Below, one piece after another: positions 4,508-47,100 of a DNA stretch of 64,000 nt. The position numbers were made by a program, and so were the translations under genes. The stretch's first letter is position 1. Each line of letters begins with the position of its first letter. Origin of the DNA: Stegostoma tigrinum (taxonomy: Eukaryota); the NCBI RefSeq assembly GCF_030684315.1, contig NC_081368.1, positions 68,355,754 to 68,419,753 of the forward strand, written 5' to 3'. Under the pieces are notes generated by a model. It saw only the letters and a list, made by a program, of their open reading frames with translations, made no database searches and had not been told where the DNA came from.

Positions 4508-4633
4508 GATAATGGGAACTGCAGATGCTAGAGAATCCAAGATAACAAAGTGTGGAGCTGGATGAACACAGCAGGCCAGACAGCATCTCAGAAGCACAAA
4601 AGCTGATGTTTCGGGCCTAGACCCTTCATCAGA
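4508..4633 (-). mobile_element. Solo Penelope-like terminal repeat (PLE family 1) with hammerhead-like core
   Basis: Nearly identical to the 12553-12680 unit; minus strand reads CTGATGA AGGGTCTAGGCCC GAAACATC. Confidence 0.8.
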
Positions 4634-6646: not shown

Positions 6647-6796
6647 TTATTTCTCTTTGTTCCCGAAAGAAATAAATGAAGTCTTGGATTTGTGGAATCT
6701 CTCTATAGGCTGCTGTTGTCTTCTGTATTGCTCCCCTCGGTGTTGTTCCAAGAATGGACCCCAGTCAGGAGCTGGTCTGAAAACTGCAATGGCTTT
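6647..6796 (-). CDS. SLC6A14-like: SLC6A14-like terminal coding exon 14, 150 nt including TAA
   Basis: tttccacag|AAA; [49 protein letters not shown]; contains the typical RP..WGP.LEQHRGE.Y motif. Confidence 0.93.
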   Translation of the reverse strand, partial: KAIAVFRPAPDWGPFLEQHRGEQYRRQQQPIERFHKSKTSFISFGNKEK

Positions 6797-9700
6797 CTGT
6801 GGAAACAAGATTGAAATTATTAACATTTTTTTTGCAGCGTGTCAATCACATGAATGCATTGTAGTACTATTCACTTGCTGTTCTGTTACTATGACCCAAC
6901 CCATTCACACTGTATTCAAATCAGTGTGAAGCTGGATGAACACAGCAGGCCAAGCAACATCTCAGGAGCACAAAAGCTGACGTTTCGGGCCTAGACCCTT
7001 CATCACATCTGATGAAGGGTCTAGGCCCGAAACATCAGCTTTTGTGCTCCTGAGATGCTGCTTGGCCTGCTGTGTTCATCCAGCCTCACACTTTGTCACA
7101 CTGTATTCAAATTACTGCTTCTTATTTTTCCCGAAAAGCAATAACAGCTTTCATCAAATCACATGCAGTGTTTCTTTTTCCCACAAAGTTATATCCTTCC
7201 TAATCCCAACATAACAGCATGCTAACCCACTTAACATTGCACTTGCATGCACGTGCAGAGAGGCAAAAATAGAACTGTATAAAAAATGTGTTAGGCCAAA
7301 GTTAGAGTGTTATGTACAATTCCAGAAGTAGGATGCAATCAAGAACAGTGAATTTTATATATGAAAAGAGACTGGATGAGCTAAGGATGTTTCCTTTGGA
7401 TAGAAGAAGCCAATCGAGCATTTAACTGATTTACATAAAATGAATTGAGGCGTGGATAATATCCACTTCCCTTCATAAAGGTGCCAATAACCAGAAGACA
7501 AAGTAATTGGAAGGATTTGAGAAGAATTGAGGAACAAATTTCTTCACATAATCTGTGGTGGAATTTTGTTTTGAGCTGCCTGGAAAGGGCACGAAAGACA
7601 GAAATGCCCTTTGCAGTTAACAAAAGGGTAATGTAATTTCCAAGGCTATGGACAAAATGCCGAGACATGGGGTTGCATTGAGGGGTCAAAATGGATAAAA
7701 TGGGGTAACTATGCTTCCATTCTACTTTATCCAACACCCCATCATCTCCGAGCCAACACTGTAGTATCAATCTCCATCTTAAAAATGCATTAATTTCTTT
7801 CATCTCAAAACAGCTAGCTTTCTTCCAAACATTGAAGCATTCCATTACAATATGCAAAGCAGCATCCTACTGCAACTCAGCAACATATCAACTTGCTCCA
7901 GCTCCACAACACAGCATCCTGCTCCAGCTCCACAATGCAGTGACCTGCTGCAACTTAGCATCAATCTGCTCCAGCTCAGCAATGTAGCGCCCTACTGCCA
8001 CTCAGCAACCCAGCACCCTGCTCTCGCTCCACAATGCATCAACCTGCTCCAGCTCAGCAATGCATCAACCTTCTCTGGTTCATCTATATAACAAGCTGCT
8101 GTAGTTCAGTAATGCAGAATCCTGTTCCATCTTTGACATGTAGCCACCATCTCCAATACAGCAATGGAGCTTCCTTCTCCAGCACCAAGCTGCAGTTTCT
8201 CTATTCATCCCAACATTACGTCAGCTTTCCGCTCTTAAATGTGCAACAACTGCCTCCATGCCAGCACAGTAACATCATTCTCTATCCAAATGCAGTTTTA
8301 TCTTTTTCCATCCTGACTCTGGAGCACGCCTGCTGAGTTCAACAGCAGTCCATTCCAGTACTATAGCTCCTTCCTGCTGTGATACTGGTGCAAGTTTATC
8401 AGAAAATGGACTGGAACACCTTATTCCTACAGTGTGTATCCTGATCCCAACTGAAATAAGTCCTTCTTCATTCATCTGCTAGGATAGCCGCATCCACCTT
8501 CATATTTTGTTATGGTGAAGGCACCATTTAAATGCAACTTGTCATTGTAACAGCTTGCAGCATGATCATGTGATTCAGTTGTATTTTTCTCATATTTCTT
8601 AACTTATCCTTGAATTTTCATCATCTATATCATAATTGTTTTGGCATGTTTTTATATACTAGTTCCAATCATTAAAAACTGTACTACAACTAATCAAAAA
8701 GAAAGCAAGCCAATCACTAAGCTTCATCTCTAGTCATACAGAATTGAAACATGAATGACTAAACAGTCCTTAACGTTCAGTACACAGTTCAGGCCAACTT
8801 AATATAAAAGGACATAGAGAGGGTGTAGAGAAGATTTACAAGGATGATACCAGAATTTAGGAGTATACACATCAAGAAAGAATTGACAGGCAGGGTTCCT
8901 TATCCCTTGCTGAAAGAATGGAGAAATGTTGGCCACGGGCCACTCGCACATGAAGCTAGTATCTATAAACTGAATTTACCAGAGCCCTAGCTGCTGGTTT
9001 GAGCCAGTTTGTGCTTGTTCACCTCTGAGGATGACATTTGGGGAAATCACTATTTGGTGGAAGGGTAATGAGGTAATCCTAAAGGTGTCCTTGGAGTGGG
9101 CCTATAGTGGAAAGACACCAGCTTGTTCGATGTGCCATGAACAAACAGGAACAAGACAGCACAGTTTGGGGATAAGGAAAAGATAAAAATAGAGGAACAC
9201 AGCAGGCCAGGCAGCATCAGAGAAGCAGGAAAGTTGACGAGTCAGGTCTGAAGAAGGGTCCCGATCCTAAATGTCAACTTTCCTGCTCCTCTGATGTTAC
9301 CTGGCCTGTTGTGTTCCTCCAGCTCCATACTGCATTGTCTCTGACTCCAGCATCGGCAGTTCTTGTTACCTCCAAGATAAAGATGAAGGATTTTTGTGTG
9401 CCATCAGCGAAAACACTCGGCAGCAATCTTCGCAAAATCATGGGCCCCATGTGGAGAGGACTCCACGACCTGGGAGAAAACACTTGGCCAACATGATCTT
9501 CTATTCTTGGGTATTAGCCTTTAAATTTTTTGACTGTTCCAGGTACGACATTGAAAAACAATGGACGTGCACTTGTATTTTAGCCTTTTATGAATTGCAT
9601 GGCTACTGTTGATCTTTCCTTGACCAAATGGCATGAACTGTATGTCTGTTTTAACTAAACTAATAAAGTTAGTGATTATTTGAAACAGATTAGAATCTTT

Positions 9701-11145: not shown

Positions 11146-14100
11146 TGCTCTTTCTCTCTCTCACAAACACAGGTGCATGCGCACACACGCACTCTCTCAC
11201 ATGCACACACGTGCGCTGCTTCTCACACACACACACATGCACTCACAAATACACGTGCACTCTCTCTCACACACACGCGCACACACACTTTCACACACAC
11301 ACACATATGCTTTCTCCCAAACACACNNNNNNNNNNNNNNNNNNNNNNNNNNNNNNNNNNNNNNNNNNNNNNNNNNNNNNNNNNNNNNNNNNNNNNNNNN
11401 NNNNNNNNNNNNNNNNNNNNNNNNNNNNNNNNNNNNNNNNNNNNNNNNNNNNNNNNNNNNNNNNNNNNGCATTTGCAGACCTGTAATTGCAGATACGTTC
11501 TATTTTGTCCAAAAAGCACCCAATTTGTCGACGGTCATTGTGTATTTTTATAAATTCATCCTTTGGAAATAAAACCAATCTGACTCCAAGTTGTTACACA
11601 GCCAGATTCTAAACAAGGCCACACACTTAAAATGCACTATCCAACTTGAGATGTCAACCCTAGTATGCTAATAAAACCACTAGTTATCTCAGGGCAGTGA
11701 CTTGAAAGAAATTCTGATACTTGCATATTAACAATTTCTGATTGATCAGAGATTTAACAACTACCTTAGGTTTGTTCAACATAGCATCAGTTCATTGACC
11801 CTTTGATCTTTTGCTTATAAATTCTGTGTCCATGTTTGTAGATTCAGGAATTAGCCCACTTCAATGCATATAACAGAGGAGTGAAAATACAGACCTTTTT
11901 TTGAAATACAAACATTGAAACGACTTTATACCTTTATAAATCATGCTCACCCGCAGCAATGCGGCAGCCCTCCTTATCCCATCATTGCAGCATTTCTCTG
12001 TGTTCACATTGCAAAAACCTTTTCCATCCGAATGTGCCTGGCTAATTCTCACTGTGGGAATCTTTAGCCTGTGAATAATTGCACTGTGGAAAATTCTCAC
12101 GGGTTCAGTGCATGACGATGCTACTGGGTGTGATGGGAACATACGGTGCATCATTTATAAATGACAGATGAGCTGTTGGGGCAGGGATTGAGAAGGAAGT
12201 TACCACATTGAGATTGAGAAGGATGCTTGATATTTGCATTGCCAGGATGGAGAGAGCTTCTGCACCATTCTAAATGGCAAAAGATGTTGCTGAGCTAGTA
12301 TGTAGGAGAACTCTACTGCGTGACGTTGGATACGAAAACTGCAGCATTCTGGTTCACAGATGACAAAGTGGCATCCTTGAACACTGGGCCCCTTCCTTTT
12401 CAAATCCCTCTAGTGTCCTGCTAAATACAATCACTGCAGCATATATATCCACAATTTTCTACTGGTGACAAAAACTGCAGAATTCTTTTAGAACCAACCA
12501 TTGCAGTATCATTATACACCTTAGAAATCATTCACATCTCACCCATAGTTCTGAGATAATGGGAACTGCAGATGCTGGAGAATTCCAAGATAATAAAATG
12601 TGAGGCTGGATGAACACAGCAGGCCAAGCAGCATCTCAGGAGCACAAAAGCTGACGTTTCGGGCCTGGACCCTTCATCAGAGAGGGGGATGGGGAGAGGG
12701 AACTGGAATAAATAGGGACAAGAGAGTTGCAATGGGAGAGAGATTCCCTGAGGTTGGTCCGGAGGGAGGAGGGTAACTTCTTCAGGTTAGGCATCCCTGG
12801 AAGAGGCTTCGCAGTGAGGTTAAAATAGTATCAGAGATAATGGGAACTGCAGATGCTGGAGAATTCCAAGATAATAAAATGTGAGGCTGGATGAACACAG
12901 CAGGCCAAGCAGCATCTCAGGGGCACAAAAGCTGACGTTTCGGGCCTGGACCCTTCATCAGAGAGGGGGATTGGAGAGGGAACTGGAATAATTCCTTCTC
13001 CCCATCCGCCTCTCTGATGAAGGGTCCAGGCCCGAAACGTCAGCTTTTGTGCTCCTGAGATGCTGCTTGGCCTGCTGTGTTCATCCAGCCTCACATTTTA
13101 TTATCTTGGAATTCTCCAGCATCTGCAGTTCCCATTATCTCTGATACTATTTTAACCTCACTGCGAAGCCTCTTCCAGGGATGCCTAACCTGAAGAAGTT
13201 ACCCTCCTCCCTCCGGACCAACCTCAGGGAATCTCTCTCCCATTGCAACGCTCTTGTCCCTATTTATTCCAGTTCCCTCTCCCCATCCCCCTCTCTGATG
13301 AAGGGTCCAGGCCCGAAACGTCAGCTTTTGTGCTCCTGAGATGCTGCTTGGCCTGCTGTGTTCATCCAGCCTCACATTTTATTATCACCCATAGTTCTCT
13401 TGTCTTACCAACATAGGTATTTACCAAACAAGAAAACATCCTGTTGTCTACTAACTTCACACTCTCCCTCAGTGTGTCCATGCCTGTTAGCATTCCCATC
13501 TCGATCTGCAGCAGACTGACTCAATTAAATACTGCTGTATATTTTCTACGATGGTAATGTGGTACAACAGTGGTACATCCTCCTCCATCCCAGTACAATA
13601 GCAATGATCTTGATTTCAAAAAAGCAAACACACTTACTAAGTAACTTGCTTCAGTCAAACATTGTTGCACATAACACTGTTCGAAATACGAACTTAACGA
13701 ATTAGGCCAATCAGCCCCTTGAGCCTGGTCTTCCCTCACCCCACAACTTCTTTCTCCATGTAAACAGATTCCATCCCCATTCCAACACTGCAGAAACCTA
13801 TCCATTGCAACAAAGCAGCATTATTTCACATCTCAATACAGCAGCGTCTTCCAGCATCCCAACACAACCATACCATCTCAAGCCTCAGAGTGCAGCCTCT
13901 TCATCAAGCCCAACGGAGTAGCTTCATTCTCAATCCCAACATGTTAGCTTTCATCTTTGTCTAAATCTGCATTAACAAAAACCAATGAACAAGACATCAA
14001 TGTGCGGAAGCCAACCCTCAAAGAGGCAATTAATCCAGTTCACCTTGAAACATTTAAATGTAAATCAGTAAGTTTACTTTCAGAGTATAATATTTTGAGC

Positions 14101-17100
14101 ATAACATTTTAATCATCAATAACAGCAAACATGATGAGTGATGCTTGTAAGTGATTTAAGAACAAGGTTCCCAAAGATCTTCTCCAGTGGGTTTTTTCTC
14201 ATTTATTTAGCCCATTGTGGACTAATGGAAAGAACAGATCATCAACATTAGTCAACAGTTCCATGGTAAATTGCATTCCATGATGACCAGGATTGTAGAC
14301 AGTGAACTAGATGGATCTTGGTGAGCTTTGTTAACAAACCTTTAAGTTGCGATGTAGACTTAAAGTTCATTACAAAACGCAAACATGCATAAAAGTAACT
14401 CTCCTTGTTTCTTTGCTCCACAGTTTCTCCCTGTCGCTCTGCTCCAGAATAACTTACTGCCTCTTTTTCCACAATTCCAAAAATCACAACCTACTCCTGT
14501 GCTCCAGTATCTCTCCCTGACCCTCAACTCCAGAATCTGTCTGCTATCTCTCTCTGAATGTCGGCACCAGAAACTTTCCCTGTCACTTTATAACAGAATC
14601 TGGCTTTAACCCTCCAATCCTGGCTCTTGCCTTTTCCCTGTGTTCCAGAATTTGATCCAAGATCTTTCTCAGGCCCTCTGCTCCAGAATCTTTCTCTGTG
14701 TCTATGACCAAGAACAACTTCCCATCACTCAGCTCAAGAACCTTTCTATCACTCTTCTGCAGGCTCATCGTATGTCCCCCTATCCCAGGCTGTCTTCTTG
14801 GCCCTCTTTCACCACATTCCTGTGTTCCAGACTTTTTCTGAATCTCTCTACTGCAGAACCTCTCCTCCTGTGCACTGTCTCCTGTAATGACACAGAAATT
14901 GCTTCTCTTGAAAATTAAATGGAAAATGGTGAAGCAAAGCTTAGGACAGTGATAACCTGACTACCATTTCCAAGCACAAAAACAAAGTTGCTGGAAAAGC
15001 TCAGCAGGTCCGGCAGCATCTGCGAAGAAAAAAAATCAGAAGATAACATTTCAGGTCTAGTAAGCCTTCCTCAGAACATTATGTGAAAAAAAAACATCAG
15101 AGTTAACTTTTCGGGTCCGGTAGCTCTTCCTCGGAATGTTCTGAGTATGGGTCACCGGGCCCGAAACGTTAACTCTGATGTTTTTTCACAGATGCTGCTA
15201 GACCTGCTGAGATTTTTCAGCAGCTTTGTTTTTGTTCCTGATTTACAGCAGCTTGTAGTTCTTTCGGTTTTTATTATTTCCAGGCAGCCTTTGTAACTTT
15301 GCGCCTCCTTTAACCTAAAGAAGAGGTTACTTCTGTGTTTTGAATCACATCCAGTGTTACTACCCTAAAATAGCTCACATTATGTTTAGTTTAAATACAG
15401 ACATCACTATAAGCTCTATGTTTTTCTTCTCTTACCTGGCACAGGCTGTCACCTTCAGCATAAACAATGACAACCAGTGCAATAACAGGGACCCAAAGGA
15501 AACAAAATGTTAACATAAGCCAGCCAAGTGTTATTGCCCAAGAAGGATACGCCACAAGTCCATATTCTGGTGGTCTAAATATTATTATAGACCAGATTAG
15601 CATTAGCTAAAAAAACAGAAAAAGATGTTAAATGAGCCAAAAACATGCCACTTGATCAATGGTAGTTTAAGGCACTAAAAGATGCAACATCCACTCACAG
15701 TCAGCAGAATAGGTGTAACAACAATCCAACAGACTCTCCACCACAGCCAGAACAGCCAACTCCTTTCCCCAATCATCATCTCAATGTCCTTAATGAATCT
15801 GTTTATCCCTGTGAACAACAAGAAAACAGAGAGACACCATGACTCACGTTTTCCAGTCTTCTGGGCAGCCTATTTCTGAATTTGAAGTTCATCCTGTTTT
15901 GGGTGCTACTGTTGAACAGTCAACTTCCAATTATCAGTATTTTGGGCATGGCTGGTAAATAAATCCCAATACCAATTTACTTCCTTCTGCTAATCTACGT
16001 ACTTCAGGGATTCTAAGCACTTTAACCTTCGCTTACCATAAATCCAGCTTAAGCCGATGAGTTCCAGTATTGCAATCAAAATTAGGCCCCATCCAGAACA
16101 GAAGTGATCGATTAAAGTTATCCAGTAAATCCCAGACTAAAAAATACATTGAGAAAACGGATAAAGGAGATGGTCCTTTTCAGAATGTCAAATACTGAAC
16201 AAACCGCGTTTTACTGAAAACATAGATAACCACACATCCCATTCTCTTAGAGACAGTCACTAAAGTACAATACAGTATAACCTTTGTTAAAGTACAGTTG
16301 TAATAGAATTTATGGCTACTCAGCAATGCTGAGGGTTTATTTATTTGGCTCAGACAGTATTTCCTATTGTCTCTCTATAGCGTCTCTTCTCCCAATCCCC
16401 ATTGCCAATCCAGTCAGCCTGAAACAATTTCACAAACCAGCAGTGATGAACCTTGTTATTTCCCACATCCTAGCACACCCAATCACAGAATCAATTTCTA
16501 GACATCCATAAACATTTTTACGAAGGCTGTAATCAATTCTTTCTTAATTCAAGGATATTTAGTAGCAGTGGTTAAACCTATTTTGCTTCTCAGAGCCACT
16601 TGTATTTTTGGACTGATTTTCACTGCACTGAAATAAGTAGGTAAGATTACAGGAAGTTCTTGCTTAATGTTAATTGGTTATATGAAACCACAATGGTAAG
16701 TGGAAGAACATATTGCAAAACAGTCTGTCTGAGGCTCATAATCCTGTCCTGCTCCCCTCCTTACTCGAGACCTGCATCCCAGATCTGGCAAACTCAATAT
16801 GGGAGCTAGACCAAAACATCCTGACATGCAATGATATTAATGAAAAACAGCTGCAATGCAGTACAAATGCAGGGCTCTAACTGCAGGGTGTTGTTAATGC
16901 AAAATAATGTTGCATGTCATGACATTAAGTGAGGACTTCCTGTATTATAAAACTCTTAAAAATTGCTTGTAATTTTTATATTACCTCACAACTGCTGAAA
17001 GCAAGTCTGACTCATGGCTACAGAACATAGAACATAGAACAGTATAGCACAGAACAGGCCCTTCAGCCCATGATGTTGTGCCAACCATTTATCCTCATGT

Positions 17101-20100
17101 ATGCACCCTCAAATTTCTGTGACCATATACATGTCCAGTAGTCTCTTAAATGACCCCAATGACCTTGCTTCCACAACTGCTGCTGGCAATGCATTCCATG
17201 CTCTCACAACTCTCTGTGTAAAGAACCCGCCTCTGACATCCCCTCTATACTTTCCTCCAACCAGCTTAAAACTATGACCCCTCGTGTTAGCCATTTCTGC
17301 CCTGGGAAATAGTCTCTGGCTATCAACTCTATCTATGCCTCTCATTATCTTGTATACCTCAATTAGGTCCCCTCTCCTCCTCCTTTTCTCCAATGAAAAA
17401 TGTTCGAGCTCAGTCAACCTCTCTTCATAAGATAAGCCCTCCAGTCTAAGCAGCATCCTGGTAAACCTCCTCTGAACCCTCTCCAAAGCATCCACATCTT
17501 TCCTATAATAGGGCGACCAGAACTGGACGCAGTATTCCAAGTGCGGTCTAACCAAAGTTTTATAGAGCTGCAACAAGATCTCACGACTCTTAAACTCAAT
17601 CCCCCTGTTAATGAAAGCCAAACCACCATATGCTTTCTTAACAACCCTGTCTACTTGGGTGGTCATTTTAAGGGATCTATGTATCTGCACACCAAGATCC
17701 CTCTGTTCCTCCACACTGCCAAGAATCCTATCCTTAATCCTGTACTCAGCATTCAAATTCGACCTTCCAAAATGCATCACCTCGCATTTATCCAGGTTGA
17801 ACTCCATGTGCCACCTCTCAGCCCATCTCTGCATCCTGTCAATGTCCCGCTGCAGCCTACAACAGCCCTCTATACTGTCAACTACACCTCCAACCTTTGT
17901 GTCGTCTGCAAACTTGCTGACCCATCCTTCAATCGCCTCATCCAAGTCACTAATAAAAATTACAAACAGTAGAGGCCAAAGGACAGACCCCTCTGGAACA
18001 CCACTCACCACTGACTTCCAGGCAGAATATTTTCCTTCTACTACCACTCGCTGCCTTCTGTTGGCCAGCCAATTCTGTATCCAGACAGCTAAGATCCCCT
18101 GTATCCCATTCCTCCTGACCTTCTGATTGAGCCTACCATGGGGAACCTTATCAAATGCCTTACTGAAGTCCATATACACCACATCCACAGCTCGACCCTC
18201 ATCAACTTTTCTAGTCACATCCAGGTGGCTATGATTTACTTCCAAGATGCAGTGTACTTAAAGGACATCTTGACACTGAGCGACAGATTGGTTTTAATGC
18301 TTCACACATTTAGATATGTGCTCATTATTTCATTATTACAACAGCACGAAACCAGGGAAAAATTGATTGCGTTTGTCTAAAATGGAATATCCTGTACCAC
18401 TTAAAAATATTGATGTCTGTTTAATGTGTCCTATGGTAGAGGACTTTTTAACATCCTTTATGTGATGTGTACATCACTGGCAAGGGCAGTCTTGATTGCC
18501 CATCCCAAATGACTTTAGAGAGTGTGGTGGTGAGCCACCCTCTTGCAATGTTGCAGTCATGAAATGCTGGTACACCCACAGTGCTGTTAGGAAGGGAGTT
18601 TCAGAAGTTTGACCAGATGGCAATAGTTCCAAGTCAGGAGGGTATGTGGCTTGGATGGGAACCCGTGGCGATGGTATGCACATGCATCTTGAGTCATTGG
18701 CCTCATAGTTGGTAGAGGTTGCAAGTTTAGAAAATTCTGCTTAAAGCAGCCATGGCATGTTGTTCAGTAGACCTTGTACACTGGGCACACTGTGGCTTGG
18801 TAGTGGAGTGACTGACTGTTCAAGCTGGTGGATTGGGTGCTGATCAAACAGGGTGCCCAACTGAAGCAGCAGCAGAGAAAGCAAAAGAGTCTCTGTTCGA
18901 GACTCTGGGAGAGGGTATTGCCACAGCACAGATAAAGGAAGAGGAAGTGGAAATGAAAGAGTTGCTGTGAGACCTGCAGAGGCTTCCAACATTATAGGAA
19001 GCAAGCTAAGTAAATAGTCAATGAGTATTTGTCTTTCTTATTATTGAAACATATATCTTCTTAACTAGGAATTGGGCAATTAAGAATTTGAATAAAGTTA
19101 CTGAGGTACTACATGAATTAATAGGTTAAAAGCATAAAACAGTCGCAACTGAGGCATTAATTGAGGCCAATAGCTCAATCAGAGTAATACCCAGATTGTT
19201 AAAATGGTAATAGAGGTTTTCTTTTACATTATTGATGGGACTTCGTAATATGTGGGGCATTTTACGCATCTTAGGTGTCATGTATATTGGAAGTGTTCCC
19301 CCCGCTCCAGCTCAAGGTCAGGATTTGCAAGCTCCAGGGACAGCTGAACTCACTGAGGAGCATTACGAAGGATGAAAATTCCTTGATGGCATATTTCAGT
19401 AGGTGCTCATCCCCTGGCAGCGGAAGTTTAGGACAGCAGGTTGGAGGACATCCAAAAGATGCATGCTCCTTTTAAACCAGTACAACATTGGAACCTGTTG
19501 GGAGTGGCGATACCCTGAGTAGTGTGATTGAGAACATGATATTAATCACCAAATGGCAGCAAAGTATATAAATACATTTGTTATGGAACATTCCACAGAC
19601 AGGGAGACAGATATGCATTTCTGTGGCTATGATTGAGATTCCCATGTGGTGTTTTGCCTCCATGCTTCCAGGACATAAGTCACTACCAAAGAGAAGGAGA
19701 AATTGAGCCAGATGTTGTGGTACTCATTGATTCTAATATACAGAGGCAAACATTTATGGTCAGATTCCCAGGAGCTAGGAAGAAGTTAAAAAGTAGGACA
19801 TTAATGATGGTTTTGTTGGTTCCTTCCAGGGGCACATATTAGTGAAAGTACACCTAGGAAGATAGCTCGAGTCCTTGCATGTTTGGGAGCACATTGCAGG
19901 AGGAAGGACTTCAGGTTCCTCAGCATTGCAGTCAATACTGGGGAAGAAAGCATCTGTTCAAAACGAACAGTTTGCACTTGAACAGGCCTGGGATCATTGC
20001 CCTCACAGAGAGTTGCACAAGGGAGACTGGAGAGGATTTAAACTATACTGGTGATAATGGGTACCAACATAATGAAGTGGAGAAAAGTAAGCATAAAATC

Positions 20101-23100: not shown

Positions 23101-26100
23101 GAGTCCACACCCAGACTCAGCCCATTATCCTATTGCTGTAACTTTACATTTTCTCAAGGCTCATCCGCCTAGCCAGCACATCCCTGAACACCTTGAGACA
23201 ATTTAGCATTGCCGATCCATTTAACCTGCACACTTTTGGACTGTGGAAGGAAACAGCAAACACCACACAGACGGTTGCCAAAGGCCAGAATTCAACCCGG
23301 GTCCCTAGAATTGTGAGGCAGCAGTGCTAACAACTGAGCCACTGTGCTACTGTGCTATCCACTCAGTCAATTTAAATTAGTTCTTTTCTCTTGGGAAGCA
23401 TTTCATCGCAATTTAAGCTTGCTCGGTTCATAAAGCTAAACTTGGCAATATGGTTTTTGTATTAAATTGTCAGGGAGATGGTGGGTGCCTTGTCATCAAA
23501 TGGAACATGCATCTATCTGTACTCCTGCCTGCCTTCAGACACATGTGTCTAAAATGATTGCTTAGAGAACAAGGTAACGTTGAGGAGGTTGAAAATTGAA
23601 TATCAATTGTGCAGTGGTGGACAAAGAGTTGGAGTTGACAAGGTGAACTTATTTTGAATTGAATACAAGGTGAAAGGGAAATGGGTGGGACAAGCCAAAG
23701 AGGTATATAAAGAGAAATATAACTATTTGAAGTTAACTTACTGCAATAACCCACATAGGTCAGTAATAATGGGATCAGTTAGCAATTACGTGTGGGATAG
23801 CAGCCTTGTAATTTCTTAAACAACCTGGCACTTACAAACAAGCGAGGATGAAGGTTAGAGTCTGAACCAGGATAAATCCAACGTCTAGGGTAGCAATGTA
23901 TCTCACATTCTCAACCACCTTTAATAAGGTAAACCTCTGAACTTTTCAGCCAAAAATTGACATAGGGCTGATTGCAGATATTTGGACAGTAGACAGTAGG
24001 ACAGTCGACAAAGGCAAAAAAAACCATAATGGGAGTTATGTACAGACCTCCTAACAGTGATCAGGACCAGGGGTGCAAGATGCACTGGGAAATAGATAGG
24101 GCATGTCAGAAAGGCAAGGTCACGGTGATCTTGGGGGACTTCAATATGCAGGTGGACTGGGTGAATAATGTTGCCGGTGGATCCAAAGAAAGGGAATTCA
24201 TGGAATGCTTACAGGATGGCTTTTTGGAACAGCTTGTGATGGAGCCTACAAGGGAGCAGGCTATTCTGGACTTAGTGCTATGTAATGAGCCAGACTTTAT
24301 ATAAGATCTTAAAGTAAGGGAACACTTAGGAGGTAGTGATCATATTATGGCAGAGTTCAGTCTGCAGTTTGAAAGAGAGAAGGCAAAATCGGATGTAATG
24401 ATGTTACAGCTAAATAAAGGTAATTACAGGGGCATGAGAGAGGAATTGACGAAAATCAACTGGAAGCAGAGCCTAGCAGGGAAGACAGTAGAGCAACAAT
24501 GGCAGGAGGTTCTCTGTGTAATTGAGGACACAGTGCAGATTTTAATCCAAAGGACAAGAAAGGTTATCCAGGGGAAGGTGGGGGGGCGTGGAATTAGATA
24601 GCCATGGCTGACAAAGGAAATCAGGAAATGTATCAAATGTATCAAAGAAAAAGAGACAGCTTGTAAAGAGGCCAAGTGCACTGGGAAATTAGAAGATTGG
24701 GAAGGCTACAAAAACAAACAGAGGATAACAAAGAGAGAAATAAGGAAGGAGAGGATCAAATATGAAGGTAGGCTAGCTAGTAATACTAGCCTAACCTCGG
24801 TTGTTGGTAAAATTCTAGAATCCATTGTTAAGGATGAGATTTCTCAATTCTTTGAAGTGCAGGGTCGGATTAGAACAAGTCAGCATGGATTTAGTAAGGG
24901 GAGATCGTGCCTGACAAACCTGTTAGAAATCTTTGAAGAGGTAACAAGTAGATTAGACCAGGGAAACCCAGTGGATGTTATCTATCTAGACTTCCAAAAG
25001 GCCTTTGAAAAGGTGCCTCACGGGAGGCTGCTGAGCAAGGTGAGGGCCCATGGTGTTCAAGGTGAGCTACTGACTTGGATTGAGGATTGGATGTCTGACA
25101 GAAGGCAGAGAGTTGGGATAAAAGGCTCTTTTCAGAATGGCAACCGGTGACAAGTGGTGTCCAGTAGGGTTCAGTGTTGGGGCCGCAGCTGTTCACTTTA
25201 TATATTAATGATCTGGATGAAGGGACTGGGGGCATTCTGGCAAAGTTTGCCGATGGTACGAAGATAGGTGGACAGGCAGGTAGTACTGAGGAGGTGGGGA
25301 GGCTGCAGAAAGATTTAGACAGTTTAGGAGAGTGGACCAGGAAATGGCTGATGAAATTCAACGTGAGCAAATGCGAGGTCTTGCACTTTGGAAAAAAGAA
25401 TACAGGCATGGACTATTTTCTAAACAGTGCAAAAATTCATAAAGCCGAAGTACAAAGGGATCTGGGAGTGTTGGTCCAGGATTCTCGAAAGGTTAACTTG
25501 CAGGTAGAGTCCGTACTTAAGAAAGCAAATGTAATGTTGTTGTTTTTCTCAAGAGGGTTGGAATATAAAAGCAGTAATGTGCCTCTGAGACTTTATAAAG
25601 CTCTAGTTAGGCCCCATTTAGAATACTCTGTCCAGTTTTGGGCCCCACACCTCAGGAAGGACATACTGGCGCTGGAGTGTGTCCAGCGGAGATTCACACA
25701 GATGATCCCTGGAATGGTAGGTTTAACATATGATGAAGAGCTGAGGATCCTGGGATTGTATTCATTAGAGTTTTGAAGGTTGAGGGAGATCTAATAGAAA
25801 TGTATAAGATAATGCATGGTTTAGAAAGGGTGGACGCTGGGAAATTGTTTCCGTTAAGCGGGGAGACTAGGACCCGTGGGTATAGCCTTAGAATTAGAAG
25901 GGGTAGCTTTGGGAATCAGCAAATGTGTTATGTAAAGCAAGGGGAGGTGATGGCCTAGTGGTATTATTGCTGGACTGTTAATCCAGAGACCTAGGTAACA
26001 TCCTGAGGACCTGGGTTCAAATCCTGCCACAGCAGATGATGAAATTTTATTTCAATAAGTATCTGGAATTAAGAATTTAATGATGACCACGTGTTGACTG

Positions 26101-29100: not shown

Positions 29101-32100
29101 AAATACAGTGGACCAGAGAGAGGCAATTGGAAGGTGGAGAAGAGCTTCTGGGTATGCTAGAAAGATCAATCCTAAGCCTAGACAGTGAATAAAAGTATGC
29201 AGTGTTATTAATGAATTACAAGGTCATTGGCAAAATGTTGTACCTTATCTAACTTAACAGTAGTGGGGCGCAGTTCTAGTTTGCTATATGCTACTAATCC
29301 CACTATACCCTCTGCCATCGTGTTGGCTGGGACCTTCTGCTGGGCAGTTAAAATGGCTGTCCCCTCCACAGTGCAAACACATTGCAGTGTGCCAGATGCC
29401 GGGAGAATAGTTCCTAACTGACAAATAGCTTCCAGCTAACAGAAAGGGTAGCCATCTCCTACTAGGGCAAGAGGGAAATGTGCTATGTTTCACTGCCCTG
29501 CAGTGCCATGCCTGCCCTTAAACACAACTATATGTCAACTGACACCTTTCACTGCAGAATAGAAAGGAGTATAACTCCTCCAAAATGACCCAAATCTTGC
29601 TTTTGGCATTATATTGTCATTGGGTCCAACATTAAAAATGACACTTAGTCTGAGATCTAAAATGATGTAATTTGAAAATTCTTACATTTCATTTTCAACT
29701 TTCCCTCTGAGACCTGCCCAGAATTCAGGCTGGAATGGAAACCAGTAGATTTTTGGGATCAGAATTCCAAACTTGTCCCTCCATTCCCTATATCCTTCAC
29801 GAGCTACAGGATGTGTTGAATCACAATTTGACAGATACGTCCTAGGATATTAACATCTCTACATGAAGGCTTACAATACCCGCAACAAAAGGATTTGGGA
29901 GCCTGTGTGATCCCTATCAGGTAAATTAGTTTGTAAATCTCAGAACAAATATTACTTCGGTGTCAGGGACTTTTTGGCACTTACATTTAAAAGGTCTTTC
30001 TACTATCCCTTCATATCCTGTATACCCCTCAATGACCTGTCATATCTCTATGTACCCTATATGGCCCCTTTCCCCTAATTTACTGTATGCTTGCACCATG
30101 CCTCTTACACACTGTCCATTTCCCTTCAATTACCCCGCTATCCTTCTCATGCCCCTGGACATCATTCAAATGCATCTTACCAATACTAACAATGTAAGAA
30201 ACAATGTGTTGTTTCTTTGAAATGATTCCAAAACTGATTAAATCGACTAACAGATTATAAAAACTTCCTCTGCAAGTACCAATTAATAAAACAAAAGGAA
30301 AGGTTAGGCCCAAAACGTCAGCTTTTGTGCTCCTAAGATGCTGCTTGGCCTGCTGTGTTCATCCAGCTTCACACTTTGTTATCTTGAAAGGTTTTTTTCT
30401 CTCTTCTTAACCTTTCTTGATCTTGTCCAAACAAACAAACAAGTGCTTAGAAAATTCAAATACAGTTTGCACTCCCTTTCAAACTGTTTAACTATTCTTG
30501 GCAGTCAACAAAACACCCATAATGGAGATCAAATGGAGAAACGGATGCCTCAGAGGGTATCACAAAGAATGGTTGGTTGAGTGCCAAGACTGGTTATAAG
30601 ACCCAAACCTGTAGGCTAGAACAATAGTTTAGGTTCAAAAACAGATGTTGCTGGAAAAGCTCAGCATCTGTGAAGAAAAATCAGAGTTAAATTTTCGAGT
30701 CCGGTGACTGTTCCTCAGGACTGGTTTAGGTTGTTCTGGTGGAGGAGAAGGGAGAAACATTATTTGTCCCTGAGTAAGCCACCATTGGATAAATCAAGAT
30801 ATGAAAAAAGGTGTGAAAAGTTACAGCTAATTGACTACGCTTTGCAATAAACACCATGGAGACAATTTTAAACTTTGTCTACTGAGTGATAACATGGTAG
30901 AATAGATCTCCTGTCTGTGGCAGACAGCTATTGGGAGTGCCCCATCAGTAAGTTCAAATTGGACTCAAAGGGCCACAGTTCTTCATTAATAAAATATTAA
31001 GTCCTAACCTAAATCATTGGGAAAAATCTAAAAGACAGGTGGAGTGGTCTCCAAACTTTCAGATAGTCCAAAGTAGGGGATATAGCAAATAACCCTGTTG
31101 ACCAAAGGAAGTCAGAATGCCTAGAAGACAAAATGACCAAAAGGTGGAATCAGAGGTCACCTTTGTTAATGGTTAGATAAGATAAAATATTTTAAGTACT
31201 GTAGGTACCTGAATGTGAAACCTCTGAAACTGGTAAATGAATGTGATGAGCCACATGTCCGAGGATGGAAAAGATGGCAAATCCAACCAGCACGCTCGTA
31301 AGACAGTTAAGAAAAGCAACAATGAGGGTATCTGTGAAACAGTCATTCTGGAAGTTGTTATAAGATGACAGTGCTGTTACACCCCCTGGCGACACTGACA
31401 GAGAAATGAAAATTTGAGTTGCAGCGTCTTTCCAAACCTGATAAAATGTAAGATAGAATTAATTGGCAACAGTGATTTTTGGATGTTCCTTTGTGATAGC
31501 TTCACATTTACTGATATTTTACCCCATGCTTTGCCCCTGCCATCCCCACCCCTTGCCAATCTCACCGTGATGTCTCATGAACACTGACTTCAGCACTGTG
31601 GCTGCATTTTCCCATCATGTACACTGGGCCACATCTCCATCGCTCATGCATGTAATTTGATTGCTTGCTCATGAACCATTGTGTGTTTCATATGATTCAT
31701 CCAATTTTCTGGAGCTTCCAACAAACTTCATGGCTTCCATCACGAGGCTCTGTTCTGGGCAGGTATCTGTTTCTCTTGTTTTCTCAATAAATTAAACAAA
31801 AAGCTGTGGGCAACATTAGCAGGAGCTGCCCCAAACCCGGGTCAGGTCACACAGGCCAGGGATCAGCTCCTTTGGCTGAACATCTGGCTTGCAATGCAGG
31901 CTGATGCCATGGATACAGTTCCCACATTGGCTGAGGATAGCATGAAGATCTTTCCTTCACAACCTCTCACCTTATCTGAGGTGTAGTGGCCATTAGGTTA
32001 AACCAGCACCAGTTGACTCTCTGTAATGAAAGAGCATCCCGATGGTTTGGTAAGGCTATGGTGTCTTCACCTCTAGCACACACCCCCCACCCCCCCGCAC

Positions 32101-41100: not shown

Positions 41101-44100
41101 TATCCCTTTTGCATTTGTCTAAACACTAAAAGATAATCATTCTCTTATTTACCTTTTTAAAGTGTTTCCACCTTAACAACATCAGCTGCATTGAACACAG
41201 TCTGATTCATTGTGATTTTTTTTCTCTCAAGGTCACTTATATTCCTGTCAAGGTGTAAGTGTAGTTGTGGTATGACGCACTAACCTTTATATTGCTGAGG
41301 TCAGGGGCTAACTTGCTGACACCTCCACCTACCACCCTCTTAATCACGACCCCACCCCTGACCAGTAAAACATCATCTCTCAGACCTCCCATAACCTCAT
41401 CACCTCAGGTGACCTCCTGCCCACTGCCTCTAACCTCACTGTTCCCCAACCTCCCAGCACCCATTTCTATCTCCGTCCCAAAATCCATAAACCTGACTAC
41501 CCTGGTCAACCCAGTGTCTCCGCCTGCTCCTGCCAATTGAACATATCTCCACTTATCTCAACTCTTATTTCTCCCCCCAGTCCAGGAACTCCTCACCTAC
41601 ATCCGGGACAGCACCCACCCCTCCACCTCCTCAAAGAATTCCGATTCCCTGGCCCCCAACACCTCATCTTCACTACGGACATCTAGTCCCTATACACTTG
41701 CAATCCCCATGCAGATGGCCTAAAAGCCCTCCAACTTCCTCCTCTCCTGCAGGCCCGACCAGTGCTCCTCCACCAAGACCCTTATCCACTTAAGTGTACT
41801 CGTCCTTACACTGAACAACTTCTCCTTCAACTCCTCCCACTCCCTACAGTCAAAGTGTGTGGCCATGGGTACCCGCATGGGCCCAAGCTATGCCTGCCTC
41901 TTTGCAGGATACATGGAATGATCTCTCTTCCACAGCTACACAAGCACCATCCTCCACCTCTTCCTCCATTACATTGATGACTGTATTGGCACTGCCTCAT
42001 GCATCACCAGCTTTACTAACACCTTTCACTCCAACCTTAAGTTCACCTGGACCATCTCTGATACTTCTCTCTTCTTCCTGGACCTCTCTGTCTCCATCTC
42101 TGGTGACCACCTCAAAACTGATATCTATTTCAAGCCCACCGAATCCCACAGCTACCTAGACTACACCTCCTCTCACCCACCTTCCTGCAAGAATGCTTTC
42201 CCCTATTCCCAAGTCCTCCACCTCTGCCGCATCTGCTCCCAAGATGAGGCATTCCACTCCCGGACATCCCGATGTCCTTGTTTTTCAAGGGCCGCATTTT
42301 TCCCCCTTCAGTGATCAAAAACACTCTCAACCTCATCTTTTGCGTTTCCCATACCTCTGCCCTCACATCCCGTCCCCGCAGTAAAAACAAACACAGAAGT
42401 CCCCTTGTCCCCATATATCATCTAATTAACCTCTGGATTCAACGCATCATTCTCAACCATAGGCAATCTGACCCCACTACAAAGGATATATTTCCCTCCC
42501 CACCCTATGTGCCTTCCATAGGGACCGGTCTCTCTGCAGCTCCCTTGTCTGCTCCACACTGCCCACTAGCCCCACCACTCCCGGCACCGTTCCCTGCAAC
42601 CACAGGAAGTGCCATACTTGTCCCTACACCTCCTCCCTCACCTCTATCCCAGACCTCAAAAAAACCTTCTACATCAGACAGATGTTCACCCGCACATCTG
42701 CAAATGTGGTATATCCTATCCACTGGTCCCAATGTGCCCTCCTCTACATCAACGAGACCAAGTGGAGGCTCGAAGACCACTTTGTACAGCACCTGTGCTC
42801 TGTTTGCGACAAACGACAACACCTTCCAGTTGTGAACCACTTCACCTCCCCCTCCTACTCCCACTCCCTGGACAATATGTCCATCCTAGGCCTCCTCCAG
42901 TGTCACATCGGCACTACCCGGAAACTGGAGAAGCAGCACCTCATGTTCCGCCTTGGAAGCCTACAACCCAATGGTCTCAATGTGGTCTTTACTAGCTTCA
43001 AAATCTCCCCACCCTCAACCTCATCCCATGGCCAACCCTCCCTCTCATCCCCACCTCCTTGACCTGTCTGTCTTCTCTCCCATCTATCCACTCCTCCCAC
43101 CTCACTAACCAATCCCCACCACTACTGATCTTCACTCAACCATCACCATTCCACCTCCCTACCCCAACCTGACCAGCCCTCTAGTTATCTTAGAGTCCCT
43201 TTCCTCCTCCCCCATTTCTGAAGAAGGGTCCCAACCTAAAACGTCAGCTTTCCTGCTCCTCTGATGCTGCCTGGCCTGCTATATTCATTCAGCTCCACAC
43301 GGTGTTATCTCAGACTCCAGCATCAGCAGTTCTTACTATCTCAGGTGGAAATGTTGCTTTTCTTTACAGCAGGATGGATTGTGAGGTTACTTTTTTTTAA
43401 GTTGGAAGGTAACCAAGGCTAGGGAATAAATATTCAAGGGCATCTGATATTTCAGATGGGTAGAAAGAAATACAAAAAAGGTGGAGTAGATCTATGATAA
43501 AGCATTAAATTAGTGCAACTATGGGAAATGATCTTGGCTTCAAAGATCACAGTCTAGAATCAGTTTGGATGGAAATATGAAATATCAAGTGAAAAAAAAT
43601 CCCCGGTAGATGTACTTAAAAGTTCCTTCACCAAACTGCAATGTAGGATAGAGTTCATTCTGTAAAATAAGGAGAGCCATTAAGGAAAGTGATACTTACA
43701 TTGGTGATATTCATCCCTGCGTAACAATATGTCTCAAATTTGATAATTTTGCTTTCACAAATACAGTTTTTTGCTCGATTTAGCACCCATCTCAATGATT
43801 ATAATTATTTAAATAAATTTTCTATTTATTCTACATGCACCTTTTATGCCTTTCTGGATGCTACCCTATCATCCAATGGTACAATAGTCTGTGTCTGCAA
43901 AAGGTGGTGAAGGAGCCAACGAAAGAAAACATACTTGACATCACCCTCACCAATCTGCCAGCTGCTGCTGCACCTGTCCATGAAGGGCTTGGTAAGAGCA
44001 ACTACTACACAGTGCTTGTGGAAACAAAGTCCCACCTTCACATTGAGAATACCTAGCATCGTATTATGTGGTACTATCACTGAGCTTAACAGGACACACT

Positions 44101-47100
44101 TTGAACAGATCTACCAACTCATTACTGGGTTTCTATGAGGTACTGTGGGCCAACAACAGCTGCAGAATTGTACTCCTGCACAATCTGCAGCCTCATGGCT
44201 CGGCATATTCCCCCAAGCAACCATTACCATCAACCCAGGGGATCAACCCTGGTTCAATGGAGACTGCAGACCAGAAGCAACACTGGGCATTCCTAAAAAT
44301 GAGGTGCAAAACTCGTGAAACTATTAAACAGGACCACTTACATGCCAAGCAGCAAGTGATAGACAGAGCTAAATGAGCCCACAGCCAACAGATCAGATCT
44401 AATCTCTGCAGTCTTGCCACATCCAGTCATAAATGATGGTGGGCAGTTCAGCAACTCACTTTAAGAGTTTAACAAAGATTTGTAGTTCAGGTTATGGGTA
44501 AGGTTGTGGGCTTGCTCAGTGAGCGGGCTTGTTTGTGTTCAGATGTTTCGTCACCCTGCTCAGTAACATCATCAGTGACGCTTCCGCTGAACTGAAGTCG
44601 TTCTACTCCACTTGGAGCTTATATTGTCCGGTCTGTAATGGTGAGTACTGTTATTTCTGGTTTTGTTCTGTATGGGTTTGTATATGGGCTCCAATTCTAT
44701 AGTAATGTTGTCCTAGTTAAACTGATGGCGTTCATTGTCTAAATGCATTGATATTAAGGAAAGTTTGTTGTGTCATTTTGCTGCTAGCTGATGTTCATGT
44801 GTTCTGATGGCTAGTTCCTTCTTGGCTGTCCAATGTAATGTTTGTGGCCATCATTGGGACAATGTAACTCTCATAGCCCAAGCCAAACATAGACACACAT
44901 GGGAATTCCTAAAGGCATGCTTCTGAACCCATCATGCAATCAACAAATGTCTAGAATTGGACCCCATATACAAACCCATACGGAACAAAACCAGAAATGA
45001 CATCACTCACCATGACGGTCCAGACAGTATAAATTCCAAGTGGAGTAGAACAACATTGCTTCATCAGAGGCCTCACTGATTATGTTAACTTGCGTGGTGA
45101 TGAAACATCTGAACAAAAACAAGACAGCTTGGCAAGCAAGTCAACAACCTAAACAACTCACTGGAAGAGAAAGCTTCACAAATATCCCCATTCTCAAAGA
45201 TGGACAAGCCCAGCACATTAGTGTAAAAGATAAGGCTGAAGCATTTGTAACAACCTTCAACCAAAAGCGTCAAGTGGATGATCCATCTTAGACTCCTCCA
45301 GTGGTGTCTAATATCACAGATACCAGTCTTCAGCCAATTTAATTTAATTCACTCCATGCGATATCAAGATATGCTGGAGGCACTGGATACTGCAAAGGTC
45401 CTGGGCCCTGACAATATTCTGACAATAGTACTGAAGACTTGTGCTCTACAACTTGCTGCACCACTAGCCAAGCTGTTCCAGTATGTTTACAACATTGACA
45501 TCGACTCAGACATGTCCTGTACACAAAAAGCAGGGCCAATCAGTGCCCCATCAGTCTACTCCTGATGAACAGAAAATTGACGGAAATGTCATCCACAGTG
45601 CTATCAAGTAGCACCTGCTCAGCAATAACCTGCTCAGTGACACCCAGTTTGTGCTCCACTTGGGCCACTCAGCCCCTGACCTCATTACAGTCTTGGTAAA
45701 CATTGACAAAACTGTATTCAACTGAGTATAGCATCAAGGAACCATAGCAAAACTGGAATCAATGGGAATTGGGGGCAAACTTTCTACTGGCTGGAATCAT
45801 CCCTGGCACATATTTAGAAAATTAGTTGCATTTGTTGGAAGTCAGTCATATCAGTTCCATGAAATTATTGAATGAAATTCTTAGGGAACATGTCCTAGAC
45901 CTCTAGCCGCTTCATAATGACATCCCCTACATCATAAGGTCAGAAGTGGAGATGTTCACGGATGATTGCACAATGTTCAGCATCATTCACAATTCTTCAG
46001 TTACTGAAGCAGTCCATGTTCAAATTCAACACGATCTGAACAATATACCGGCTTAGGTTAACAAGTAGCAAGTAACATTCGCGCCACAAAAATGTGTGAG
46101 GGGATGACCATTTCCAATAAGAGATCATCTAACCAGCGAGTTTTGAGAAGATTTGTAGCTCAGGTTGAGGTTCTGGATGTGAGTTTGCTCGCTGAGCTGG
46201 AAGGTTCGTTTTCAGACGTTTCGTCACCATTCTAGGTAACATCATCAATGTGCCTCCGACGAAGCGCTGGTGTTATGTCCCGCTTTCTATTTATCTGGTT
46301 AGGTTTCCTTGGGTAAGGCTGATAAATAGAAAGCGGGACATAACACCAGCACTTCATCGGAGGCTCACTGATGATGTTACCTAGAATGGTGACGAAACGT
46401 CTAAAAACGAACCTTCCAGCTCAGCGAGCAAACTCACATCCAGATCATCTAACCTTTCACCCACCCCGACTGTTGACATTCAATACAGTTACCATCACTG
46501 AATCCTCCACTAACAATATCCTTAGGGCTACCCTTGACCAGAAACTTAACTAGACTTGCCAGACAAACATAGTGACTAAAAGTGCAGGTCACAGGCTAGG
46601 AATACTGCAGCGAGTTATTCGCCACCTGACTCCCCAAAATCTGTTCATATCTACAAGGCGCACTTGTCTGGATAAGTGCGGTTCTAACAAAACTCAAGAA
46701 GTTTGAACCCATCGTGAACAAAATAGCCCACATGATTGTATCATGTCTACAAGGTTCCACTCCCGACATCACCTAAGGTCAGTTGCAACAGCATGTACCA
46801 CCTACAAGACACATTGCAGAAATTCACCAAAGATTCTTAGATAGCACCTTCCAAACCTATGGCCACTTCCATCTCGAAGGACAAGAGCAGCGGATAAATA
46901 GGAACACCACTACCTTCAAGTTCCCCTCCAAGCCACTCACCATTCTGACTTGGAAATATATCACCATTCCTTTGCTGTCACTGAGTCAAAATCTGGAATT
47001 CTCACCCTAATAGGCCTACCTATTACACATAGACTGCAACAGTTCAAGAAGACAACTCACCACCACCTTCTCAAGGGCAAGCAGAGATAAATGCTGGCCA

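Follow-up and report, generated by a model that had tools for sequence, protein, structure and literature searches.

An SLC6 transporter gene (Pfam SNF) spans 6.7–61.9 kb on the minus strand of the 64-kb window, by which we mean the whole stretch of DNA analysed, with about 13 coding exons seen; by its motifs it appears to be SLC6A14/A5-like. Host exons were sought among 77 frames of at least 70 aa from the first 30 kb, and the likely last coding exon was assigned by its RPAPDWGP motif, which we take to be a mark of that exon. Since a mirror-image insert of 832 bases lies between the SLC6 exons at ~15.5 kb and ~6.8 kb, it likely sits in the last intron of the gene. An earlier note on this DNA had placed it in intron 13: the intronic position agrees, as the last intron, and the number 13 would fit the 14-exon layout of SLC6A14.

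The features of the insert are collected in Table 1. Positions are counted from the C of CUGAUGA (window 13014), which is q1, with the cut predicted after q28, and e-n lies n bases upstream of the next hammerhead; parent coordinates follow the copy of a Penelope-like element (PLE) at locus L060 (see below), which lacks one base near q97. The left arm runs in the order pLTR, 5' body, deletion junction, second hammerhead and long (tailed) end near q128–130, while the right arm ends at a short site near q90–92, its final 2 nt being common to the TSD. The tail on the left arm is ~38 nt longer than that on the right, leaving the arms unequal. The arms align in inverted orientation (12589–12974 with 13001–13386) over 386 nt at 99%, and the full arms differ by five substitutions and one indel, of which three substitutions and the indel fall within ~25 nt of the centre. 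A 281-nt period is present on both strands, as are four CUGAUGA-A-stem II-GAAACGUC cores, whose predicted cut sites were placed by the hammerhead consensus, taken here as established. The earlier note had described an insert of about 830 bp with a 14-bp TSD, a tandem of period 281 fused to its own reverse complement with few mismatches, and four hammerhead cores; all of these reappear in our comparison, the cores at exactly the same coordinates.

Table 1. Features of the insert, the flanking host exons and a related element, in window coordinates
Feature	Position	Strand	Remarks
Likely last coding exon of host SLC6 gene	6700-6810, limits approximate	-	RPAPDWGP motif
Left TSD copy, 14 bp	12539-12552	.	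TCACCCATAGTTCT, 100% identical to 13385-13398
Left arm	12553-12991	-	begins 30 nt upstream of a hammerhead (e-30)
Minimal type-I hammerhead core	12653-12680	-	predicted cut after C12653
Mirror copy of deletion junction	12718	.	comparison with parent
Minimal type-I hammerhead core	12934-12961	-	predicted cut after C12934
Central head-to-head joint of two 5'-truncated arms	12975-13000	.	sequence comparison of arms
Right arm	12992-13386	+	begins 22 nt upstream of a hammerhead (e-22), same deletion junction
Minimal type-I hammerhead core (q1-q28)	13014-13041	+	predicted cut after C13041
First ~25 codons of parent PLE ORF, ended by deletion	13181-13257	+	translation against parent; start codon presumed
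Deletion junction, q243 joined via one shared T to e-38	13257	+	comparison with parent
Hammerhead core lying 281 nt downstream of the first on the plus strand	13295-13322	+	predicted cut after C13322
Right TSD copy, 14 bp	13385-13398	.	TCACCCATAGTTCT
Frame with host SLC6 exon upstream of insert	15394-15606	-	Pfam SNF 476-521
pLTR of older decayed PLE family, relative of unit	43196-43342	+	76% over 150 nt

In the core at 13014–13041 the 4-bp stem II is preceded by an extra A, stem III (ACGU) has no loop and stem I has 2 bp, in keeping with the minimal type-I hammerhead with palindromic stem III proposed earlier. It resembles the minimal hammerheads published for PLEs (Cervera and de la Pena 2014, PMC4209133) in the extra base between 9 and 10.1, in G10.1-C11.1, in its palindromic loopless stem III and in a 2-bp helix I as in D. 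virilis, but differs in stem II, which measures 7–8 bp in Schistosoma, and in a competing rod that pairs the core. This rod, an inactive fold pairing q1–6 with q25–30, is the preferred prediction (–11.4 kcal/mol, 81% of the ensemble). For the right arm the probability of the dimer stem III is 1e-4, and the forced cis dimer comes at +27.6 kcal/mol in a nearest-neighbour model that ignores tertiary contacts of the core. The 281-nt circle is predicted to be less stable than the mean of 100 shuffles (z +1.6, 49% paired, GC 51%). Minimal hammerheads in print cut weakly or only with protein (PMC11167929; PMC4209133), and eight of nine Xenopus dimers failed to cut according to the accessible part of Li et al. 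2026 (bioRxiv 10.64898/2026.07.22.740005). Given the rod, the dimer cost and the weak published cutting, these models make it unlikely that the host pre-mRNA releases a 281-nt monomer or circle, as had been suggested earlier. The hairpin of the whole transcript that had also been suggested is recovered in folding predictions on either strand, with 802 of 834 nt paired. As this ~390-bp hairpin in the host intron would bury all four cores, the insert is most likely an inert passenger.

A search with hammerhead models, proposed in the earlier note as a check, returned none: an Rfam scan of the window gave 10 matches up to E 1, all below gathering score and none a hammerhead, those at the insert being hairpin-driven miRNA hits. 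TRF reported no tandem array over 12300–13700.

Other elements are scattered over the window. The same host intron holds further hammerhead-bearing pLTR inserts at 6925–7094, 9192–9362 and 15096–15209: two of these are head-to-head pairs, one of them bounded by a TSD of its own, and the remaining one is an older copy, diverged and lying in a hairpin. Single pLTR fragments, belonging to the same family or to older ones, lie at 4508–4633, 30306–30389 and 48187–48319. A second PLE family contributes a divergent hammerhead pair, at 44542–44575 (minus strand) and 46368–46401 (plus strand), in which stem II is longer and stem I differs (UCA/UGA). Fragments of LINE-type RT and endonuclease are found at 1159–1467, 17112–18257 and 23993–25773, and a decayed older PLE at 41300–43342 retains RT and GIY-YIG remnants, recognized by eye, together with a mutated hammerhead core in which A replaces the G of GAAA.

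Parent family and deletion junction

The 39-nt hammerhead word has 3,126 exact occurrences in the assembly. A near full-length copy of the parent at L060 has a period of 3,645 nt, with hammerhead-bearing pLTRs in partial tandem. Frames of this copy and of those at L056 and L062 match RVT_1 (E 5e-5 to 5e-6) and GIY-YIG (E 5e-4 to 9e-3), both below the Pfam cut-offs; the family carries RT and, at the C terminus, GIY-YIG in one ORF, which is broken or truncated in the copies examined. The linker before the endonuclease reads CX4CxxC in L060, its last Cys being changed in L056, and the closest named proteins are from carpet sharks (87–92%). RT, GIY-YIG and the CX2-5CxxC linker are in common with the EN+ PLEs Neptune and Nematis. 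Judged by these sequences the parent is a young PLE, probably of Neptune type, with a linker mark that fits Nematis too. We found no description of this shark family in the literature searched, which did not cover Repbase, and Li et al. 2026 may list the unit among their chondrichthyan families.

Alignment to L060 leaves the parentage of the insert plain: its arms are 97.6–97.8% identical to the parent, bearing out both the PLE origin and the recent age given in the earlier note. The homology to the element at 43218–43342 reported there is likewise real (Table 1), but at only 76% identity that element was ruled out as the parent, a place taken by the L060 family. The deletion is equally plain. 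The unit consists of parent q1–243 joined via one shared T to e-38, and the missing ~3.36 kb comprises almost the whole RT and GIY-YIG ORF; by this comparison the unit is an internal-deletion, non-coding derivative of a young PLE.

The exact junction of the insert occurs seven times in five loci of the assembly. Two of the seven occurrences are the insert itself and the other five bear older subfamily markers; no locus of the young subfamily that could have been the source turned up with this junction in the rest of the assembly. As the exact junctions carry different subfamily markers, this junction formed on at least three occasions, and a single lineage for all 281-nt units is ruled out by the presence of markers of three subfamilies. 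Parent position q243 is also joined to other acceptors, and the recurrence of its junction in at least three subfamilies, with 1 nt of microhomology, makes random deletion alone an inadequate explanation. Splicing or back-splicing was ruled out as the source, the parent having no AG at the acceptor and the GT being retained. On the genome-wide copy number, for which the earlier note had called, seven exact junctions in five loci mean that the insert unit is no amplified retrozyme family. A figure of 29 matches was rejected as a copy number, being apparently enriched for a rare query variant and a lower bound, and the alignment of the 5' bodies of 281-nt units has too few informative sites for a tree. 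Many of the loci examined contain mini-tandems of other periods, ~250 to 640 nt. Three of these (L239:1166-1604, L241:993-1417 and L242:1027-1451) share a junction of q356 to q-1 with a period of about 363, and form a small lineage that was mobilised, with its joint at the likely cap site described below.

Head-to-head pairs and the mirror half

Using two exact 14-nt anchors, we found 27,868 short head-to-head pairs of the terminal repeat in the assembly and none in the controls, with 3,408 pairs at gaps of 0–30, 5,168 at 31–60, 17,563 at 61–90 and 1,729 at 91–120. The first 50, 50, 50 and 15 pairs listed in these bins, all on contig C1 and so not a random sample, obey a simple rule: 150 of the 165 combine one short end (q80–105) with one long end (q118–147), while two are short-short, one is long-long and 12 are unclassifiable (p 1e-40 on 150 of 153 classifiable pairs). 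A TSD was called in 143 of the 165 and measured 14–16 bp in 104. Longer pairs, judged by eye, follow the same rule in 11 of 12 cases. Among neighbours within 8 kb of the first 100 listed exact matches to the 39-mer, 12 are head-to-head and none is tail-to-tail; an inverted partner lies within 1.5 kb at 11 of 30 loci centred on an exact 39-mer. Two-ended insertion is common in this PLE family, though not universal.

The palindrome, read in the earlier note as a fold-back element, is nothing special but a common PLE product that is already in print. Published PLE units, as described in the accessible parts of Craig et al. 2021 (PMC8557442) and of PMC3846280, comprise a partial tandem, an inverted 5'-truncated copy and an optional 30–40-bp tail at one end, and minimal hammerhead pairs lie on opposite strands 100–700 bp apart in Schistosoma (PMC4209133). 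The insert has the features of these EN+ PLE units, namely a hammerhead pLTR, an inverted 5'-truncated copy, a tail at one end, a TSD and internal deletions, and differs from the units described there in that both of its arms are mini-tandems with the ORF deleted. It is a two-ended PLE insertion of a non-autonomous derivative. The locus is ordinary for a PLE-rich genome, and the family is the more important object: its long/short pairing, and the two 5' stops described below, were counted here and are not found in the accessible parts of PMC8557442 and PMC3846280.

The pairs also bear on the possibility, raised in the earlier note, that the inverted half is an assembly fold-back artefact. The 99% likeness of the arms would suit an artefact, and no contig listed from four runs compared with 12950–13280 crosses the centre stretch, which proves nothing as the contigs are short and the repeat is high-copy. 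However, the flanks are unique, the arms differ at six places, and the genome holds tens of thousands of similar pairs, some of them old and diverged. The perfect 14-bp TSD, together with unequal ends that follow the family rule, therefore argues that the mirror half is genuine, and we consider an artefact extremely improbable.

How the tandem and inverted structures of PLEs are formed is a question raised in PMC4209133, in PMC11167929 and in the accessible part of PMC8557442. We postulate that the insert is a shortened PLE copy laid down twice, head-to-head, by an enzyme that cuts both strands and copies RNA at each, which we regard as very probable. The RT/GIY-YIG protein of an intact copy would nick both strands ~14–16 bp apart, with one target end priming at a short internal site (~q92) and the other at a long site (~q130); both cDNAs would run toward the RNA 5' end and then be end-joined. 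The mirror half would thus be built at insertion, with no mobile palindrome involved. A parallel is offered by PAc, the Poseidon element of Anolis carolinensis (Frangieh et al. 2024, PMC11167929), whose protein cuts and extends both strands from two internal start sites that bound the tail, and whose hammerhead is inactive without protein. PAc belongs to another clade, and no RNA ends were seen at its cut, whereas copy ends cluster there in the shark family. In vitro, the PAc start site was the same between strands, so that the strict long/short pairing is unexplained by that assay. We found no description of twin priming in PLEs in the literature searched, most subscription journals and Repbase lying outside it.

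A different origin of the second arm was proposed by Arkhipova et al. 2013 (PMC3846280), the accessible part of which reads palindromes at inverted junctions as self-priming: one cDNA or antisense RNA would snap back and be copied on itself. This would explain the rare junction common to both arms in the insert and in L004, L005, L008, L010 and L015, and an overlap of at least 1 nt is indeed present at 70 of 165 joints. The other 95, however, are blunt or contain filler, with no microhomology, and neither arm type reaches consistently further toward the 5' end (the short arm does so in 67 pairs, the long arm in 59, and both are equal in 24). These two observations favour two joined cDNAs over fold-back. 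In addition, 595 joints show perfect symmetry and contain no loop, and at L063 the arms differ in make-up, making it the exception to the common junction. Fold-back self-priming thus appears improbable. A rare junction common to both arms suggests that each event drew on one template or one source.

Where the copies stop

Pair counts drop tenfold past a gap of 90. Joints were examined in detail in 185 of the 27,868 pairs, and 5' ends peak, under admittedly crude weights, at q-4, that is 4 nt before the hammerhead. Among the joints with filler (83 of 185, which may include some diverged partner sequence), a G precedes q-4 arms in 20 of 30 cases compared to 34 of 117 elsewhere (p 2e-4); the count was limited to filler joints, the unrestricted figure of 22 of 28 being confounded by the last base of the partner arm. 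An extra G is known from LINE work as the trace of a copied cap, and its presence here suggests that q-4 is likely the capped start of the RNA. The surrounding sequence (window 13009–13016) reads CC+1TCTCT, which we take to fit the TCT initiator of pyrimidine-start genes. Most templates of the family would then end at this likely capped start.

A second peak of 5' ends lies at q29, next to the predicted cleavage site. Pairs with both arms beginning at q27 or later were estimated at 3,387, compared to 921 under independence. Symmetric joints, counted with patterns unequal in length and degeneracy, number 595 at AGCT (q29–32), 154 at GGCC (q16–19) and 34 at ACGT (q24–27). We consider it somewhat probable that a minority of family templates end at the hammerhead cut, in which case the sharp stops at the predicted cleavage site could possibly be the footprint of cleavage in vivo. 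Whether minimal hammerheads cut in vivo is likewise a question in PMC4209133, PMC11167929 and the accessible part of PMC8557442.

The q29 stop could also reflect stalling of the RT at the base of the inactive hairpin (q30–31), or a preference for microhomology, and not ribozyme cleavage. The predicted rod closes at q30, GGCC collects joints as well as AGCT, 5' ends at q36–41 are frequent too, and in Anolis reads never ended at the cut, uncut RNA being the main substrate (PMC11167929). Since a symmetric AGCT joint cannot distinguish ends at q29, q30 and q31, unambiguous ends were counted, giving ~1,400 at q29 versus ~670 at q31 (estimates corrected for pattern coverage, resting on 327 and 489 matches, of which 24 of 30 and 23 of 30 checked were true truncations). 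Partner arms are without a hammerhead for 9 of 12 q29 arms but for only 3 of 15 q31 arms (p 0.007), and ACGT, equally palindromic and 5 nt away, has few joints. We regard stalling or microhomology as a possible rather than a probable cause of the q29 stop. The counts are in line with a cut template without being proof of one, and the q36–41 ends and the GGCC class indicate that the joints bear the mark of trimming and microhomology as well.

In the literature searched (most subscription journals and Repbase were outside it), we found no description of PLE copies stopping 5' at cap or cut. The ~28,000 short natural products supply exact coordinates for the process: starts near q92 and q130, of which every insertion uses each one once, a stagger of 14–16 bp, and q-4 and q28/29 as the likely positions of cap and cut.

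Template of the insert and the retrozyme question

Both arms of the insert pass two hammerheads and the q-4 stop, ending short of the second junction. Having crossed both stops, they call for a template that was uncut, multimeric or circular; uncut read-through or a multimer is the probable case, and a circle is doubtful. The circle belongs to a reading of the insert as a nascent non-LTR retrozyme, in which the tandem 281-nt unit would be cut at both hammerheads, with protein help, and ligated, and the PLE enzyme would copy the circle 1.4–1.6 times from each target end. This reading is, in our judgement, unlikely, and as it alters the template only, the two-ended insertion is unaffected.

Several observations would suit a circle. 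The stop at q-4 that both arms cross is usually a hard one, and copies of the family do end at the predicted cut. We surveyed 24 loci by eye, chosen by similarity to the spacer, a preselection that weakens the case. Of these, 10 have an upstream hammerhead together with a non-cap junction; in 9 of the 10 an arm passes q-4, and in none does it go beyond the donor point unless the same junction is repeated, as happens in five (L005, L007, L014, L063 and L236). Apart from three loci with a cap-type junction, the others have a junction arm without an upstream hammerhead, or no such junction. In the part accessible, Li et al. 2026 trace the retrozymes of animals to pLTRs, with one chondrichthyan on their list. 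Yet a tandem DNA array as source predicts an identical layout, the left arm of L063 spans 822 nt without any junction, and L239, L241 and L242, with their cap-type junction, reach far upstream. The small number of exact junctions, the absence of a TRF array, the minimal core with its 2-bp stem I and predicted inactive rod, and the uncut Xenopus dimers also weigh against a retrozyme.

Comparison with known non-LTR retrozymes gives a mixed picture. The insert shares with those in the accessible parts of Cervera and de la Pena 2020 (PMC7229834) and Li et al. 2026 a non-coding unit of 170–400 nt, a tandem type-I hammerhead, derivation from a pLTR and a TSD of >4 bp. It differs in its minimal core, its GC content, a predicted circle that is unstructured, only 1.4–1.6 units per arm and few copies. 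Specifically, the accessible part of PMC7229834 describes canonical hammerheads with normal helices and loop-loop contacts, whereas stem I here has 2 bp and stem III no loop. It also describes low GC (<45–50%) and highly self-paired circles, against 51% and z +1.6, and many tandem copies from dimers to multimers, against at most two successive junctions. Li et al. 2026 use TRF tandems and a motif MFE of <–5 kcal/mol. The insert has two cores per arm and –11.4 kcal/mol, a value that belongs to the inactive fold, while TRF, run with other settings, reported no array; its unit does derive from a PLE pLTR. Under the working definition in the accessible part of Li et al. 2026 the insert unit is therefore borderline.

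More broadly, the family might hold a fossil record of the PLE RNA cycle, with two-ended copies marking the capped start and the cut in vivo, and mini-tandems being rolling circle copies, a combination we think rather unlikely. Circles would then arise repeatedly at the same breakpoints, as retrozymes caught at birth. If the mini-tandems were circle copies, PLEs and animal retrozymes would be linked by mechanism, beyond sequence, and the fossil record, if true, would be genomic evidence that the minimal hammerhead of PLEs cuts in vivo and that the cut RNA is copied.

A separate array is present at L063:2606-4020, where a young 362-nt mini unit with four hammerheads, 98–99% identical to the parent, is fused head-to-head to a plain truncated arm. 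If any locus examined is a retrozyme of circle-derived or array type, this is the best candidate.
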